Positions 48,788 to 59,609 of a DNA stretch of 64,000 nucleotides are shown here, in pieces (the first letter of the stretch is position 1; each line of letters opens with the position of its first letter). The translations under genes were made by a program, and so were the position numbers. Under the pieces are notes generated by a model. That model made no database searches, was not told the DNA's origin, and saw only the letters and a program-made list of their open reading frames with translations. The DNA lies in contig CAVPJI010000002.1 of the NCBI GenBank assembly GCA_963705215.1, positions 49,818 through 113,817 of the forward strand, written 5' to 3'. The stretch comes from an uncultured Chloroflexia bacterium. GTDB lineage: Bacteria; Chloroflexota; Limnocylindria; Limnocylindrales; CSP1-4.

Positions 48788-50263
48788 CTACGGCAGCGCC
48801 GCGCCCACCGCAGCGGCGGCCGAGCCGACCGCCTCGAGGAGCGGGCCCGGAAAGAGGCCCAGGAGAATCGTGCCCACGCCGGTGATCGTCAGCCCAACGC
48901 GGAGCAGCATCCCGTGGGCGACGGGCGTCGCGTCGCCCTGCGGCTCGCGCATGTACATGTAGACGATGACGCGCAGGTAGTAGAAGGCGGCCGCCGCGGC
49001 GTTGAGGACCGCGATCACCGCGAGCAGGGTCAGCCAGCCGCCGCCCTGGACCGCTGCCAGGATCACGTACGCCTTGCCGAAGAAGCCAGCCGTCGGCGGG
49101 ATCCCTGTCAGGGACAGCAGGAAGAGGACCATCAGGACCCCGAGGATCGGCTCGCGGCGGCCCAGGCCAGCGAACGTCTCGAGCCTGCTCGTCACGCCGG
49201 GGCGCTTCTGGAGCGCCGTGATGACGGCAAAGGCACCAAGGTTCATGAAGGTATAGGCGGCGGCGTAGAACAGGAGCCCTTCGAGGCCCTCGATCTGGCC
49301 CGCGGCGTACGCCGTGAGGCCCACCATCATGTAGCCGGTGTGGGCGATCGAGGAGTAGGCGAGCATTCGCTTCACGTTGTCCTGGGTGAGCGCGACGAGG
49401 TTGCCCAGGGTCATCGTGAAGGCCGCCAGGACGAAGAAGACGATGGCCCACTCGTCCTTCAGCGGTCCGAGCGCCTCGGCGAAGACCCGCAGGATCACCG
49501 CGAAGGCGCCGACCTTCGGCAGCACCGAGAGATAGCCCGTGATCGGCGTCGGCGAGCCCTGGTAGGCGTCGGGCGTCCAGTAGTGGAACGGGACGGCCGC
49601 AATCTTGAAGGCGACGCCGGTGGTCAGGAAGGCGAGGCCCAGGGCAAGGCCCGGCGAGAGGGCCGCCTGGCCTTCGACGATGGCCTCCAGCGCGGCAGCC
49701 ACGTCGCCGACCCGGGTGGAGCCGGTGAGCCCCCAGACGAAGGCCAGCCCGAAGAGAAAGATCGCGCTCGAGAACGAGCCGAGGAGGAAGTACTTGACCG
49801 CACCCTCCGTGGAGAGCGCGTCGCGCTTGTGGTAGCCGGCCAGCATGTAGCCGGGGATCACCATCAGCTCCAGGCCCAGGAAGAGCACCAGGAGATCGGC
49901 CGACGCCGCGATGAGCATCGCTCCCGCGAGGGCGAAGACCAGGATGACGGCGAACTCCGGCACGGGCAGCCCGCGCGCGGCGAGATACTCCGGCCCGAAG
50001 AGGATCGTGAGGGCCACGATCGCCACGAAGACGAGGTCGAGGAAGGTCGTCAGGTCGTCCACGCGGTAGGAGCCGCCGAAGGCGGTTCCGGGCGTTGCCC
50101 CGGCCCATGCGACGAGGGCTGCGACGACCGCCAGGCCCACCAGGCTCACCCCGATGGCGGCCCGTGCACTCGCCGGGGCGACGATGTCGGCCACGATGAT
50201 GAGCGCGGCGAGCAGGACGACCGCGACGAGCGGCGCGATGACGGCGAGGTCGGCAGTGGACAT
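48788..50263 (-). CDS. nuoN: NADH-quinone oxidoreductase subunit N
   Basis: LFLGLELM, EGAVKYFLLGS, FKIAAVPFHYWTPDAYQGSP, KRMLAYSSIAHTG, GIPPTAGFFGK. Confidence 0.95.
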   Translation of the reverse strand: MSTADLAVIAPLVAVVLLAALIIVADIVAPASARAAIGVSLVGLAVVAALVAWAGATPGTAFGGSYRVDDLTTFLDLVFVAIVALTILFGPEYLAARGLPVPEFAVILVFALAGAMLIAASADLLVLFLGLELMVIPGYMLAGYHKRDALSTEGAVKYFLLGSFSSAIFLFGLAFVWGLTGSTRVGDVAAALEAIVEGQAALSPGLALGLAFLTTGVAFKIAAVPFHYWTPDAYQGSPTPITGYLSVLPKVGAFAVILRVFAEALGPLKDEWAIVFFVLAAFTMTLGNLVALTQDNVKRMLAYSSIAHTGYMMVGLTAYAAGQIEGLEGLLFYAAAYTFMNLGAFAVITALQKRPGVTSRLETFAGLGRREPILGVLMVLFLLSLTGIPPTAGFFGKAYVILAAVQGGGWLTLLAVIAVLNAAAAAFYYLRVIVYMYMREPQGDATPVAHGMLLRVGLTITGVGTILLGLFPGPLLEAVGSAAAAVGAALP

Positions 50264-54728: not shown

Positions 54729-57377
54729 TCAGTCGGTGCCGTGGGAGGATGGCGCGTGCGTGGTGTCGTGCGCCGTGTCGTGCGCCCCGCCGCCTTGGCC
54801 ATGGCCGTGGTGCCCGGAGCCGTTCCCGTTCCCGCTGCCGCCCGCGATCGACGCCGGGAGGACGGGCAGCATGCGCGGCCCGATGTCACGCCCCGCGGCG
54901 AGCGCCCGCTCGGCCCAGTCGGGCTCGCGCCGGATGTAGGTCATCTCCGTCTCGCGGTCCACGGCCGCGATCGCGATGAGGTCGATCATCGGCTCTTCGC
55001 GGCTCGTGTGGGCCAGCTCGAAGTCCGGGCCGCAGCGGAGCGCGTCGTAGGGGCAGGCGTCCACGCAGATGCCGCACAGGATGCAGCGGCTCTCGTCCAC
55101 CTCGTACTTCTCGAGGATCCGCGGCTTGGGCATGAGGGCGCCCGTTGGGCATGTCTCGGCGCACCGGCCGCACGAGACGCAGGGCGTGTCGTTGAGGCTC
55201 ATGTCGAGTGGCGTCGTGACCAGCGTGTCGAAGCCGATCCGCATGAAGTCGTAGCACGCCGCGCCCACCACCTCCGCGCACACGTTCGCGCAGCGGCCAC
55301 AGTCGATGCAGCGCGAAGGCTCGCGCAGGATGAAGGCGTGGCTGTCGTCGCGGAGGTAGTCGTGGTTGGTGCCGGTGAAGCGGTTCTCGGTGACGCTGCG
55401 GAAGCCGGCCCCGCGGTTGTTCTGCGGCTCCAGCGTGCGCAGGGTCGTCCCATACTCGATGCCCAGGCGGCGCAGGTCGCAGAACCCGATCGCCTCGCAG
55501 GTGCACTGGAGGCAGCGCGTGCTCTCCGCGACCGCCGCCTCGCGGCTGTACGGGATCTCGTACTCGATGTACGAGTCGCGCCGCGCCTCGCCGGGCATGC
55601 TGGAGAGGCGGTGCCGGGATTCCTTGACCTCGGAGGTGAAGGGGACGATGGAGAGGAATTCCGGCTGCGGCTCGGCCAGCGTCTGGCGGGTTCGGATCGC
55701 CGCCAGGTCCAGGCCCTGCAGGAAGGCGTCGACGGCGTACGCGGCACGCCGGCCGTCGGCGATCGCCTGGACGACCGTGGCGGCGCCGGTGCGGACGTCG
55801 CCCGTCCCGAAGATGCCGGGCCGGCCCGTCTCGAACGTAACCGGATCCACCTTGAGGCGCCACTGCTTCGTCTTCTCCAGCCCCGCGTTGCCGCCCCCGA
55901 GCCAGGTCAGGTCCGGCCCCTGGCCGATGGCGAGGAGGACGCGGTCGCACTCGATGACGAACTCGGTCCCGGCCGCCGGTTCGGGGCGCCGGCGGCCCGA
56001 GGCGTCGGGAGCGCCGAGCTGCATCCGGATGAACTCCACGCCGGAGACCTTGCCGGTCGCCTCGTCCACCAGGACGCGGGTCGGGCCGGCCTGGAAGATC
56101 ATGGTGACGCCTTCCTCGATCGCCTCGTGGACCTCGCTGGACGCCGGCATGTCCTTCATGTCACGGCGGTAGACGAGCGTCACCTCGTCGGCGTGCTGGC
56201 GGACCGACGTCCGCGAGCAGTCCATCGCGGTGAAGCCGCCGCCGATCACGACGACGCGGGTGCCGGCGTGGCCCGGGTAGGTCAGGCCGAGGGTGGCGAT
56301 CTTGAGGTACTCGAGCCCGTCGATGACGCCGTCGGCGTCCTCGCTGGGGATTCCCAGCTTGTTCGTGTCGTAGCAGCCGATGGCGACCACGACCGCGTCG
56401 AACCCCTGGTTCTGCAGGTCATCGAGGCTGAAGTCGCGCCCCAGCGCCTGGCCGCACACGAAGCGCCCGCCCAGGCGGGTGACGCTCTCGTACTCGGGGT
56501 CGAGGACGCGTTCCTTCGGCAGGCGGTACTCGGGGATGCCGTAGCGGAGCATGCCGCCGGGGGCCTCGTCGCGCTCGAGGATCGTGACGTCGTGACCCGC
56601 GATCAGGAGGTAGTAGGCAGCCGACGCGCCGGCCGGCCCGGAGCCGATCACTGCCACACGCTTGCCCGTCTTCGGCTGCAGCTCGAAGGGGAGCGGCGGG
56701 TCGATGTCCTGCTCGCGCATCTCCCGCAGGACCTGGTCGCCGGCGTAGCGGTGGCTGTCGCGGATCGCGATCGCCTCGTCCACCTCGTCGCGGCGGCAGT
56801 GCTCCTCGCAGGGCGCCGGGCAGACGCGGCCCAGGATCGAGGGGAAGGGGATCGTCCGCTTGAAGATGCGGGCCGACTCGCGGAACTCGCCCTCGGCGTT
56901 CGCCTTGAGGAAGCCCGGAATGTCGATGTGGCTGGGGCACTTGTTCTGGCAGGGCGGGAGGCAGTACGCGTTGTGGTCGGAGAAGATCAGCTCCAGGTTC
57001 GTCCGCCGGATCCGCCGGATCTCCTCGGTCTGGGTCCGCACCACCATCCCGGCCTCGGCCGCGCGCGAGCACGAGATGGGCGGATGCTCCTCGCCTTCCA
57101 CCTCCACCACGCACATCCGGCAGGCGCCGAAGCCGGGCAGCTTGGGCTCGTAGCAGAGGGTCGGGATCTCGATCCCGTTGTCGCGGCAGACTTCCAGGAT
57201 CGTCTGTCCCTCGCGGCCCTCGACGAGCCGCCCGTCGACCTCGAGCCGGATTGCGGGAGTCGACTGCGGCCGCTGGGGCGCCTGCGTCCGGAAGAGGCGC
57301 TCGGCGAGGCTGTCGACGGCCGGCTCGGGGCTGGTCGGCGGGGCGATGTCGGCGGGGCGCGAGATCAGGTCGGCCAT
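54729..57377 (-). CDS. fusion: NuoG-type 2Fe-2S + GltD-like flavin/NAD(P)H domain + NuoG-type 4Fe-4S clusters + C-terminal half of NuoI
   Basis: PTLCYEP...GACRMCVVE...ISC; [18 protein letters not shown]; GSGPAG; [11 protein letters not shown]; RCLQCTC..CDL; [11 protein letters not shown]; [12 protein letters not shown]; [30 protein letters not shown]. Confidence 0.85.
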
Positions 57378-57391
57378 CGTTCGGTCGTCGC

Positions 57392-58771
57392 CTACCTTCC
57401 GGCGGCGGCGGCTGGCAGCCGGATCGGGCTGCAGACGCCGGCGGGGCAGACGCCCCGGAGGATGTGGTCGTCGATCTCGGGACCGAAGTATCGCATCGCG
57501 GTCCGGAGGGGACCGGACGCCAGCCGCTCGTGGTCGCACAGGGCGCTCGCGGCGCAGTCGTCGGCAAGCTCCGCGAGCAGCTTCGGGTCGCCGGGGAGGG
57601 CCGTGCCCTCGACGTAGCGCTGGCCGATCTCGGCGAGGCGGCGCAGGCCGATCCGGCAGGGGATCGTCTTGCCGCAGGCCTCGTCAGCCCCGAAGCGGAC
57701 CAGCAGCCGCGCCAGGTCCACGACGCAGGCGCGCTCGTCGGCGATCACGACGGCGCCCGACCCGACGTGGGCGCCGGTCGCGCGGAGCGCGTCGAACGAG
57801 TAGGGCGTGTCGAGCAGCTCTTCCGGCAGGAGGCCGCCGGTCGGGCCGCCGACGAGGGCCGCCTTGAACGTGTGCCCGGCGGCCACGCCACCGGCCAGGT
57901 CCACGAGATCGCGGAGCGTGGTCCCGGTCGCGACCTCGACGATCCCGGGGTTCGCGACCGCGCCGGATACTCCCACGAGGACGGTGCCCGGGGCGTCGGG
58001 GTCGCCGATGGCTCGGAACGCGTCAGCACCGTTGGTGACGATCCAGGGCAGCGACGCGAGGGTGGCCACGTTGTGGACGAGGGTGGGGCGGCCCCACAGG
58101 CCGCGCTCGGCGGGATACGGCGGGCGCTGCTCGGGCTGCCCTCGGCGCCCTTCGAGGGCGGCGATGAGGACCGTCTCCTCGCCCAGCATGTACGCGCCCT
58201 GCACCGTGCGGACCGTGACGGCGACGTCGCGGCCGGAGCGCAGGATGTCCCGGCCAAGGAACCCGGCCTCTTCGGCGGCGAAGACGGCCGCCTCCAGGGC
58301 CGCCACCGCGTCGGCGTACTCGGCCCGGACCGCGATGATCGCCTGGCGCGCGCCGACCGCGAGGGCCGCGATCGCGATCCCTTCCACCACGGCAAAGGGG
58401 CGTGCCTGCATGAGGACCCGGTTAGTGGCCTGGGCCGGGTCCGCCTCGTACCCGTTGCCCACGACGTACCGGACCGGGTCGGCGGCACCTGCGACGGCCC
58501 GCCACTTGGCGCCCGCCGGGTAGCCGGCCCCGCCCCGGCCGCGCAGGCCGGACGCGACGATCGTGAGCAGGGTGCCGGTGGGCCCCAGGTTGCCGACCAC
58601 GGAGCGAAGCGCGGCGAACGCGCCGCCCGCAACCGCGGCCGCGAGGTCCGGCGCGCGGTCGGGCGCGCCGTCGGGCGCGCCGTCGGGCGCGCGGTCGGGC
58701 GCGATCGTCGCCACGGCGTCGCCCAGGATCGGGCGGGGCTGGCCGGCCGGACTCGTGAGGATCGTCGTCAT
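57392..58771 (-). CDS. nuoF: NuoF/HydB-like FMN flavoprotein with degenerate Fe-S motif
   Basis: SGLRGRGGAGYP, GAYMLGEETVL, GLWGRPTLVHNVATL, VGGPTGG, EACGKTIPCRIG, HILRGVCPAGVC. Confidence 0.85.
   Translation of the reverse strand: MTTILTSPAGQPRPILGDAVATIAPDRAPDGAPDGAPDRAPDLAAAVAGGAFAALRSVVGNLGPTGTLLTIVASGLRGRGGAGYPAGAKWRAVAGAADPVRYVVGNGYEADPAQATNRVLMQARPFAVVEGIAIAALAVGARQAIIAVRAEYADAVAALEAAVFAAEEAGFLGRDILRSGRDVAVTVRTVQGAYMLGEETVLIAALEGRRGQPEQRPPYPAERGLWGRPTLVHNVATLASLPWIVTNGADAFRAIGDPDAPGTVLVGVSGAVANPGIVEVATGTTLRDLVDLAGGVAAGHTFKAALVGGPTGGLLPEELLDTPYSFDALRATGAHVGSGAVVIADERACVVDLARLLVRFGADEACGKTIPCRIGLRRLAEIGQRYVEGTALPGDPKLLAELADDCAASALCDHERLASGPLRTAMRYFGPEIDDHILRGVCPAGVCSPIRLPAAAAGR
58648..58703 (-). 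repeat. 12-bp coding tandem repeat (PDRA/PDGA) near NuoF N-terminus
   Basis: GTCGGGCGCGC(C/G) units on + strand encoding PDRAPDGAPDGAPDRAPD. Confidence 0.8.
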
Positions 58772-58775
58772 CGGT

Positions 58776-59609
58776 TCAGTGGACCGTGCGGGTGGCCGGG
58801 TGCTCCCCGGCAAGCGCCTGGGCCCAGGCGGTGGCATTCGCGGTCGTCACTTCCGGCTGGACCTCGCCGTCGAGGGCCACGAGCGGGGCGGCCGCGCCGG
58901 GCGGGTGCGTCGGCAGCCACGCGTAGCGGATCCGGCCGTCGGGCGTGGGCCGGCCAAGCTCCGTCCGGAGGCCTGCGCCGATCGCGTCCGCAAGCCGACC
59001 ACCGCCGGCCATGAGGCAGGCCGTGCAGCGGCAGACGGCAACCTCCTCCACGGCCCGCTCGAGCCGGAGGTGGCGGTAGTAGCTGGCGGTGCCGTAGATC
59101 ATCGCGTACCAGGCGCCCGTCCGGTGGCTGATCCGCTTGAGCGCCGCGATCGGCAGGTGCCCGCACTCGGCCTGGACCGCCTCGAGGATCGAGAGCATCT
59201 GGTGGGGGTCGTGGTCGTGCGCCTCGAGGATCGCGTCGATCACCGCCAGGTCGACGGATTCGAAGTGCGCGTACAGCTCATCCGGAACCTCGCGCCCGGC
59301 GCGGCGGAGCGCCGATTCAGTGCGCCGCTCGCCGTACGTCTCGGCTGCGCCCCAGTGGACCGCATAGCGGCCCTTCGTGTCCCGGCCGCCCATGTCGATG
59401 CACTCGATCGGGCAGGCCTGGGCGCACTGGAAGCAGGTCTCGCACTTGAGCGTGCCGTGCTCGTCGTACAGGAGCTGGAGCCGCCCGCGGTACTTCACCG
59501 CGATGTCCGGGTCCACCTCGGGGTACTTGATCGTGAGCGGGGGCTGGAAGAAGCGGCGCATGGTGAGGGCCATCCCCTTGACCAGCCCGAGACCAGGGAT
59601 GCTGCTCAT
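58776..59609 (-). CDS. fusion: N-terminal half of NuoI + NuoE-like domain with degenerate 2Fe-2S site
   Basis: GMALTMRRFF..TIKYPE..YRGRLQL..KCETCFQCAQACPIECI (single motif), then ILEAVQAECGHLP, YGTASYY, VCRCTACLMAG, TPDGRI. Confidence 0.85.
   Translation of the reverse strand: MSSIPGLGLVKGMALTMRRFFQPPLTIKYPEVDPDIAVKYRGRLQLLYDEHGTLKCETCFQCAQACPIECIDMGGRDTKGRYAVHWGAAETYGERRTESALRRAGREVPDELYAHFESVDLAVIDAILEAHDHDPHQMLSILEAVQAECGHLPIAALKRISHRTGAWYAMIYGTASYYRHLRLERAVEEVAVCRCTACLMAGGGRLADAIGAGLRTELGRPTPDGRIRYAWLPTHPPGAAAPLVALDGEVQPEVTTANATAWAQALAGEHPATRTVH

Follow-up and report, generated by a model that had tools for sequence, protein, structure and literature searches.

In the bifurcating enzymes of the Bfu family, the site of bifurcation has been proposed to be a 'flavobicluster', B1-FMN-C1, that includes flavin mononucleotide (FMN) and two clusters (PMC11829005). 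B1 is a [4Fe-4S] cluster equivalent to N3 of complex I, and C1 is a [2Fe-2S] cluster equivalent to N1a (PMC11829005; PMC9499530). These enzymes also have a Zn site, B2, with three Cys and one His as ligands, which is absent from Nqo1 (PMC9499530; PMC11829005), as well as a C-terminal domain with the clusters B3 and B4, which reduce ferredoxin, and an N-terminal thioredoxin-like site, B5 (PMC11829005; PMC9499530). In this work we analyzed a nuo operon that carries genes related to these enzymes; it is located in a stretch of 64,000 nucleotides (hereafter the window; positions 49,818 to 113,817 of contig CAVPJI010000002.1, GenBank assembly GCA_963705215.1) from an uncultured Chloroflexia bacterium. 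Three consecutive genes of this operon encode IE (a NuoI half fused to a NuoE/BfuC-like E domain), F (a NuoF/BfuB-like flavoprotein) and G (a NuoG/GltD, or NfnA-like, protein). In the original prediction, made from the letters of the window, the Fe-S ligands of E and F were considered eroded and those of G intact.

The closest solved relatives of this module are NfnABC of C. saccharolyticus (Csac; 9BOV), StnABC (8OH5) and NfnABC of T. sibiricus (9N5U), and its best matches in the PDB are all enzymes of the Bfu family (F to NfnB and HydB with 1e-105, E with 1e-13, and G/GltD with 1e-157). As in NfnABC and StnABC (9BOV/9BP5, 8OH5, 9N5U), there is a NuoE-like C subunit, a NuoF-like B subunit with FMN, B1 and the B2 Zn site (3Cys1His), and an A subunit formed by an N-terminal 2Fe-2S domain, an inserted GltD domain for flavin adenine dinucleotide (FAD) and NADPH, and 4Fe-4S clusters. 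In contrast, the module lacks the B3/B4 ferredoxin-binding domain and the B5 domain; its B1 cluster would be held by three Cys and a Glu instead of four Cys, and its C1 site by three Cys and a His, when it is present, instead of four Cys; the Lys position of cluster A7 is occupied by His; and where A has a formate-dehydrogenase-like C-terminus the module has the second half of NuoI, the whole being encoded within a nuo operon.

In the canonical N-module of complex I (NuoE/NuoF of A. aeolicus, 6HL2, and Nqo2/Nqo1 of T. thermophilus), the chain starts with the transfer from FMN to N3, and N1a lies beside the flavin. The locus shares with it the folds, the operon logic and an F protein devoid of extra cluster domains. 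Nevertheless, F scores 358.5 bits against the NuoF equivalog TIGR01959, below the cut-off of 558.65, and it has the Bfu Zn site that is absent from Nqo1 (PMC9499530); its N3 site shows a Cys-to-Glu swap, and N1a, which a passage of PMC5562879 describes as 'strictly conserved' in complex I, is re-ligated or deleted. Schut et al. (2022, PMC9304861) predicted a confurcating complex I, named Nuo-Bfu, in Geobacter, Planctomycetes and Nitrospirae. There, too, a Bfu-type module replaces NuoEFG in the middle of a nuo operon, but Nuo-Bfu has a full BfuBC core with all its clusters, a proposed use of ferredoxin, an intact NuoI and no GltD domain, whereas the module described here is devoid of the bifurcation parts and is placed inside a split NuoI. 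In the literature searched we found no description of the ligand changes of these E and F proteins, and a search on Limnocylindria together with complex I gave nothing relevant.

By its domain make-up and motifs, the module is classed neither as a bifurcating member of the Bfu family, given that B3, B4 and B5 are lacking, nor as a canonical NuoEF, given its N3 and N1a ligands and its equivalog score; we classify it as a new variant derived from the Nfn-Bfu type. The explanation that we consider probable is that the BfuC/BfuB core of a bifurcating transhydrogenase of the NfnABC type, here E and F, was recruited as the input module of complex I, that bifurcation was lost and the B1-FMN-C1 site re-ligated, and that F is still an NADH flavoprotein. 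F ends 12 residues after the sequence CPAGVC, where the alignments with HydB and NfnB also stop, and its orthologs are of equal length; thus, the B3/B4 C-terminal ferredoxin domain is absent, which argues against bifurcation to ferredoxin. The B5 N-terminal thioredoxin-like domain is absent as well: the match of F starts at about residue 117-140 of the BfuB chains, and only about 40 residues precede it here. The changes in N3, N1a and the NADE loop that had been flagged in the original prediction are exactly in the components of the former bifurcation site.

The elements of F that bind the flavin and NADH are retained. The Pfam domains PF01512 (FMN, 133.5 bits), PF10531 (SLBB, 39.8 bits) and PF10589 (N3 region, 59.6 bits) were all detected above their cut-offs. 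The NADH and FMN contacts of NfnB are loop 1 with Phe159, Lys164, Glu274, Phe294, and loop 3 (PMC11829005); F159, K164, E274 and F294 correspond to Y106, K111, E221 and Y241 of F, and loops 1 and 3 are conserved. These residues (the Gly loop, the Lys, the Glu of GEET, both aromatics flanking the adenine, and loop 3) do not vary in sequences down to 37% identity, and they persist even in family f2, with genomes of 1.0-1.4 Mb. The conservation of the Glu that binds the adenine ribose points to NADH rather than NADPH as the substrate of F. The Asp of the NADE loop is replaced by Y, F, I or M throughout the complex-I-linked clade, including the members with a four-Cys B1. In NuoEF of A. aeolicus, a peptide flip of the NADE loop is sensed through a water molecule bound to the Cys3 ligand of N1a (PMC6560083); following this geometry, the NADE loop and the Cys3 site of E, both changed here, would face each other across the E-F interface. 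Regarding the B2 Zn site, C371, H458, C464 and C469 are invariant in family f1 and were lost in f2; in the f2 loci L126-L128, F lacks all four ligands and the C-terminal tail, and keeps the FMN motifs and the 3Cys+Glu site.

The most informative change in F is that of the B1/N3 motif, CGKTIPC, in which Thr391 occupies the position of the second Cys. All of the 120 F orthologs (60-93% identity) read CGK[T/S/A]xPC, hence none has this Cys. When F relatives were included, 146 of 278 aligned sequences lacked Cys2, with Thr (131), Ser (9) or Ala (6) in its place. The position three residues after the fourth Cys (Cys4+3; Glu437 in the F protein of the window; CDHE, CAHE or CxLE among the sequences with Glu) follows these changes: a Glu is found there in 146/146 of the sequences without Cys2 and in 0/132 of the four-Cys relatives, which have Gly (128), Ala (2), Pro (1) or Met (1). 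The other three Cys of B1 and the Glu are invariant across the class.

In the maximum-likelihood tree, the F proteins linked to complex I group in a single clade (support 100/100), whose first branch is family f4 (Ala plus Glu); the pair L006/P0241, with four Cys and Gly, is nested with support of 100/100 between lineages with Glu, beside those with Thr plus Glu. From this placement, the Cys2 and Cys4+3 positions changed together at least twice, either by two gains or by one gain and a double reversal. Since the Cys2 position tolerates T, S or A while the Glu never varies, we infer that B1 is a [4Fe-4S] cluster whose fourth ligand is Glu437 (3Cys+Glu). The original prediction had suggested ligation by three Cys plus His or Thr; for F, the idea of an alternative ligand is supported, with Glu in the place given to Thr. 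Thr391 was discarded as a substitute ligand because its position varies between T, S and A, and His436 and Asp435 were also discarded: a His is present in four-Cys relatives (CGHG, CAHG), family f4 has other residues at both positions, and L005 and P0247 read G-L.

The main alternative to ligation by Glu is that B1 is a [3Fe-4S] cluster and that Glu437 simply fills the space of the fourth iron. The loss of the middle Cys of a CxxCxxC motif is a classic route to [3Fe-4S] clusters, as in succinate dehydrogenase, fumarate reductase and the 7Fe ferredoxins, and three invariant Cys together with a replaced position that accepts T, S or A, and hence is not itself a ligand, agree with such a cluster. 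Nonetheless, the Glu is strictly invariant and changed in step with the Cys at least twice, a stronger coupling than that expected for a space filler, and Gly is nearly universal at Cys4+3 in the four-Cys relatives; we therefore regard a [3Fe-4S] cluster as unlikely.

The E domain was recognized by PF01257 between residues 124 and 261 of IE (63.9 bits, cut-off 24.8; profile positions 1-139 of 145). In the AF2 model its pLDDT is 75-95, with 80-95 for the thioredoxin-like domain, whose fold is predicted with confidence where it exists, and the best Foldseek matches were BfuC, FdsG and NuoE, with a probability of 1.0 to BfuC and NuoE; the model of the NuoI half of IE on its own is poor, which is to be expected of one half of a ferredoxin fold. 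Of the four Cys of the Cx4C...Cx3C pattern, E keeps the first pair and has neither Cys of the second. In an alignment of 121 E sequences (the IE set includes 120 full-length orthologs), C193, C195 and C198 are each present in 120/121, and His235 in 116/121. The CxCxxC motif is invariant wherever the thioredoxin-like domain occurs, that is, in part of f1, in f2, in 24/24 members of f4, and in L005 and L006. The site can be arranged as a series, at whose canonical end stands a Bfu relative from Elusimicrobia with four Cys; in L005 and L006 the extra Cys is present and Cys3, followed by His (C-H), is kept, with Cys4 lost; and in the lineage of the window and in f2, Cys3 is lost and the His kept. 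From this conservation we infer that E carries a metal site with 3Cys+His, which fits equally well a mitoNEET-like [2Fe-2S] cluster or a structural Zn; in this regard, the idea of alternative ligands in the original prediction is supported for E, where Cys195 and His235 are conserved. A precedent is the B5 site of Csac NfnB, where a thioredoxin-like [2Fe-2S] site was turned into a Zn site with three Cys and one non-Cys ligand (PMC11829005); in that case the domain is a different one and the ligand is Glu rather than His.

The E match stops short of the thioredoxin-like domain in 25/44 genomes of the family to which the window belongs, and the domain is gone in 9/9 of such loci that were read. 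In all of family f3, the IE-type gene ends after the helical domain and the thioredoxin-like domain is absent. One of the f3 loci, L133, has the layout nuoB-nuoD-(NuoI half plus E helical domain only)-F (with a four-Cys B1)-G/GltD/NuoI half, followed by a methyltransferase gene, and neither nuoH nor nuoJ is adjacent. The deletion of the domain in sister genera indicates that the cluster of E is clearly not essential, and given that the job of C1, the delivery of a low-potential electron to B3/B4, no longer exists, the E site would be accessory.

In the G protein, the statement that the Fe-S ligands are intact proved to be correct. Its NfnA-type make-up is complete (2Fe-2S N-terminal domain, inserted GltD FAD/NADPH domain that has two 4Fe-4S clusters, and further 4Fe-4S clusters), with all the Cys present, and all of these Cys are invariant in 23/23 class members (22/22 where one locus was cut short). 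However, cluster A7 of Csac NfnA has an unusual ligand, Lys170, said to be conserved in all the Bfu members (PMC11829005), and at the corresponding position 23/23 class members have His and the Bfu relative from Elusimicrobia has Lys. A7, with His at the Lys position, is a third re-ligated cluster of the module.

The ratio of nonsynonymous to synonymous substitutions (dN/dS, omega) was estimated with NG86 within the genus only, since beyond it the NG86 dS stays at 0.4-0.9 at this GC content and was not trusted. The values were 0.16-0.19 for the thioredoxin-like domain of E, 0.18-0.36 for F, 0.11-0.29 for NuoD, NuoH and NuoJ, and 0.03-0.10 for the Fe-S domains of G. The values of E and F, near those of other core subunits, indicate purifying selection, though clearly weaker than that on G. 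Therefore, when dN/dS is taken as a check of erosion, E and F behave as NuoH and NuoJ, and evolve faster than G; for F, with three Cys and the Glu invariant, its FMN and NADH contacts kept and these dN/dS values, the term eroded is not borne out. We read the missing Cys as a fixed, selected re-wiring, neither decay nor sequencing error. Several observations weigh against this reading and against that of a recruited and re-ligated Bfu core. The omega of E and F is 3-6 times that of the Fe-S domains of G, with a dS that is probably underestimated at about 75% GC; amino-acid identity is 50-80% for E and F and 75-90% for G, a ranking seen in each of the 25 loci; the NADE loop has been altered and varies within the clade; and some decay is real, given that the Zn site is lost in f2, and that the E domain of f4 lacks His as well as Cys3. 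Regarding the Cys/Glu swap, there are only two independent contrasts, both in the same direction, and a sign test is not significant, while the single clade of all the Glu sequences that was rejected by the approximately unbiased test (p = 0.0016) is a group chosen after the tree was seen. Finally, cofactor content is not readable from sequence, and hence the roles of Glu437 and of Cys195/His235 as ligands are putative.

Some of these points agree with a different explanation, put forward in the original prediction: the NADH route is degenerate, NADH is no longer oxidised, all the electrons enter through the GltD flavin (from NADPH), and E and F are degenerate scaffolds with only a structural or regulatory role. 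In every genome pair G is better conserved than E and F, whose omega is higher; the cluster domain of E was deleted in many genera, f2 has lost its B2 Zn site, the NADE loop is altered, and the GC content rises to 75-77% over E and F. Nonetheless, the FMN and NADH contacts, the three Cys and the Glu of F are invariant class-wide, including the genomes of 1.0-1.4 Mb, and omega is well below 1, near that of NuoH and NuoJ; the GRGGAG, KW and GEET motifs and the Gly residues of loop 3 would be needless in a mere scaffold. In consequence, we find this explanation improbable for F, whose contacts are invariant, and partly applicable to E, whose domain was deleted in sister genera.

That the changes come from errors in sequencing or assembly, or from a recent pseudogenisation limited to this genome, has next to no chance of being correct and was ruled out, given that the same substitutions are present in more than 100 independent assemblies, the reading frames of the E and F genes are intact, and a canonical paralog exists in the same genome; the alignment of orthologs that the original prediction had proposed as a check found the substitutions conserved in the proportions given above (F in 120/120; the E Cys in 120/121, and His235 in 116/121) rather than canonical Cys. 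The paralog of NuoF, on contig 6 of this genome (G000, locus L001), has the canonical sequences CGKCVPC, LCALG and NADEGDP; a thioredoxin-like domain, the canonical NuoF/BfuB core and a GltD domain are joined in one frame of more than 860 aa; this protein may serve the organism as a soluble NADH/NADPH enzyme. A third NuoF paralog is located on contig 17.

If the recruited Bfu core is accepted as the explanation, the following route can be proposed. As the input of complex I, the core would have come to lie within a split NuoI, flanked by its two halves; the ferredoxin branch (B3/B4) and B5 would then have been lost and bifurcation abandoned, and the three cofactors of the bifurcation site re-ligated. 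F would oxidise NADH, or exchange hydride with NAD+, so that NADH would reduce FMN, and the electrons would pass from FMN to B1 (3Cys+Glu), A1, A2 and a junction cluster, which would also take the electrons of NADPH from the FAD of GltD through A7/A6. From this junction they would reach the quinone through the re-joined NuoI clusters and N2. Given that the two flavin branches are connected, the retuned B1, C1 and A7 might limit a short circuit from NADPH to NAD+, or the reactivity with oxygen, although this is a speculation.

The order of the genes on the minus strand of the window is nuoA-B-C-D-H, followed by the three genes of the module and by nuoJ-K. The NuoI N-terminal half is fused to E and the C-terminal half to the G/GltD protein, so that these halves of NuoI flank the E-F-G/GltD module. 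The order D-H-IE-F-G-J is kept across the class, and this is the only operon with nuoH in the assembly, which is of metagenome type with a completeness of 81%. The motifs quoted in the original prediction (CRCTAC, THPPG, CGKTIPC, NGYEADP, GRGGAGYP and GEET) are all present, and their coordinates on the minus strand were confirmed by translation, with HMMER alignments giving the correspondence to the solved chains (Table 1). The NCBIfam models of NuoI cover residues 9-81 of IE. Between the NuoI half and the E domain there is a linker without counterpart in NuoI or NuoE (residues 73-110, window 59300-59390, minus strand), with the consensus MGGxDTKGRYxxHWGxAETYGERRxESALRRxGRxVPD, which is among the most conserved parts of IE. 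The start of F at ATG 58771 is supported by the F orthologs, which start at MTT. Its N-terminal region includes a 12-bp tandem repeat of 5.7 copies (window 58636-58721, minus strand) that encodes APDG/APDR repeats; this 16-aa insertion is present in no ortholog, and probably arose recently by slippage, within an N-terminal tail that would be disordered. The GC content is 0.74-0.77 over the E and F genes (57000-59500) and 0.66-0.71 in the flanking nuo genes, which agrees with the faster evolution of E and F in a GC-rich genome.

Table 1. Location in the window of the genes, motifs and residues of the E-F-G/GltD module
Feature	Position	Strand	Description and basis
IE fusion gene, 277 aa	58776..59609	(-)	NuoI N-terminal half (first CxxCxxCxxxCP), conserved linker, NuoE/BfuC-like helical and thioredoxin-like domain
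NuoF/BfuB-like flavoprotein gene (F), 459 aa	57392..58771	(-)	Open reading frame 57392-58837; start ATG 58771 from orthologs
NfnA-like gene (G), ~880 aa	54729..57377	(-)	2Fe-2S domain (NuoG-type), GltD FAD/NADPH domain with two 4Fe-4S, further 4Fe-4S, NuoI C-terminal half
First 4Fe-4S motif of the split NuoI, CETCFQCAQACP	59409..59444	(-)	Translation; invariant in 120/121 sequences
4Fe-4S motif of the second NuoI half, 12 residues, within the NfnA-like gene	55050-55085	(-)	Translation
CRCTAC	59016..59033	(-)	Cys193 and Cys198 (canonical Cx4C of N1a/C1) and extra Cys195; HMMER alignment, translation
THPPG loop	58896..58910	(-)	Thr234 at Cys3, conserved His235, Gly238 at Cys4; HMMER alignment to 9BOV_C and 8OH5_A
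GLRGRGGAGYP	58517..58549	(-)	Gly-rich FMN/NADH loop 1; Tyr106 = Phe159 of Csac NfnB, Lys111 after; alignment, translation
NGYEADP	58436..58456	(-)	Variant of NADE(G/S)(D/E)P, aligns to NADEGDP; HMMER alignment
GEET	58172..58183	(-)	Glu221 = Glu274 of Csac NfnB, binds NADH adenine ribose; alignment, translation
CGKTIPC	57656..57676	(-)	B1/N3 motif, Thr391 at the second-Cys position; aligns to CGKCxxC of HydB and NfnB (HMMER)
CDHE	57527..57538	(-)	Fourth B1 Cys (Cys434) and Glu437, proposed replacement ligand; Cys/Glu covariation
HILRGVCPAGVC	57431..57466	(-)	His458, Cys464, Cys469; with Cys371 (57725-57727), Bfu B2 Zn site (3Cys+1His); aligned to HydB/NfnB residues
His at the A7 Lys-ligand position (Lys170 of Csac NfnA)	56751..56753	(-)	Alignment to 9BOV_A

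For genome annotation, these results are a warning that the proteins of this clade called 'NuoE' and 'NuoF' are not canonical. The role of N1a in complex I has been argued about for decades. N3 and N1a (B1 and C1) are the two clusters next to the flavin, and together with FMN they form the proposed bifurcation site of the Bfu enzymes (PMC11829005). Within the clade, both sites occur in nature as a graded set of variants, in an enzyme that is otherwise conserved and apparently essential: at B1, four Cys or the replacement of a Cys by Glu; and at C1, the extra Cys in place of Cys4 with Cys3 kept, 3Cys+His, three Cys only, or no domain. The comparison of these orthologs could address what N1a/C1 is for, and how the ligation of the clusters tunes the flavin between bifurcating and non-bifurcating chemistry. 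If the explanation is true, these enzymes would show, by a natural example, that a pump that transfers electrons from NAD(P)H to quinone can do without the 'strictly conserved' N1a, and also how a bifurcation site is readjusted after bifurcation has been given up. In its widest form, which we put forward tentatively, the Limnocylindria-type Chloroflexota, abundant in soil and freshwater, may have a proton-pumping complex I that originated from an ex-bifurcating enzyme, with a carboxylate-ligated first cluster after FMN and an N1a equivalent that is His-ligated or a Zn site, and that was deleted in half of the family.

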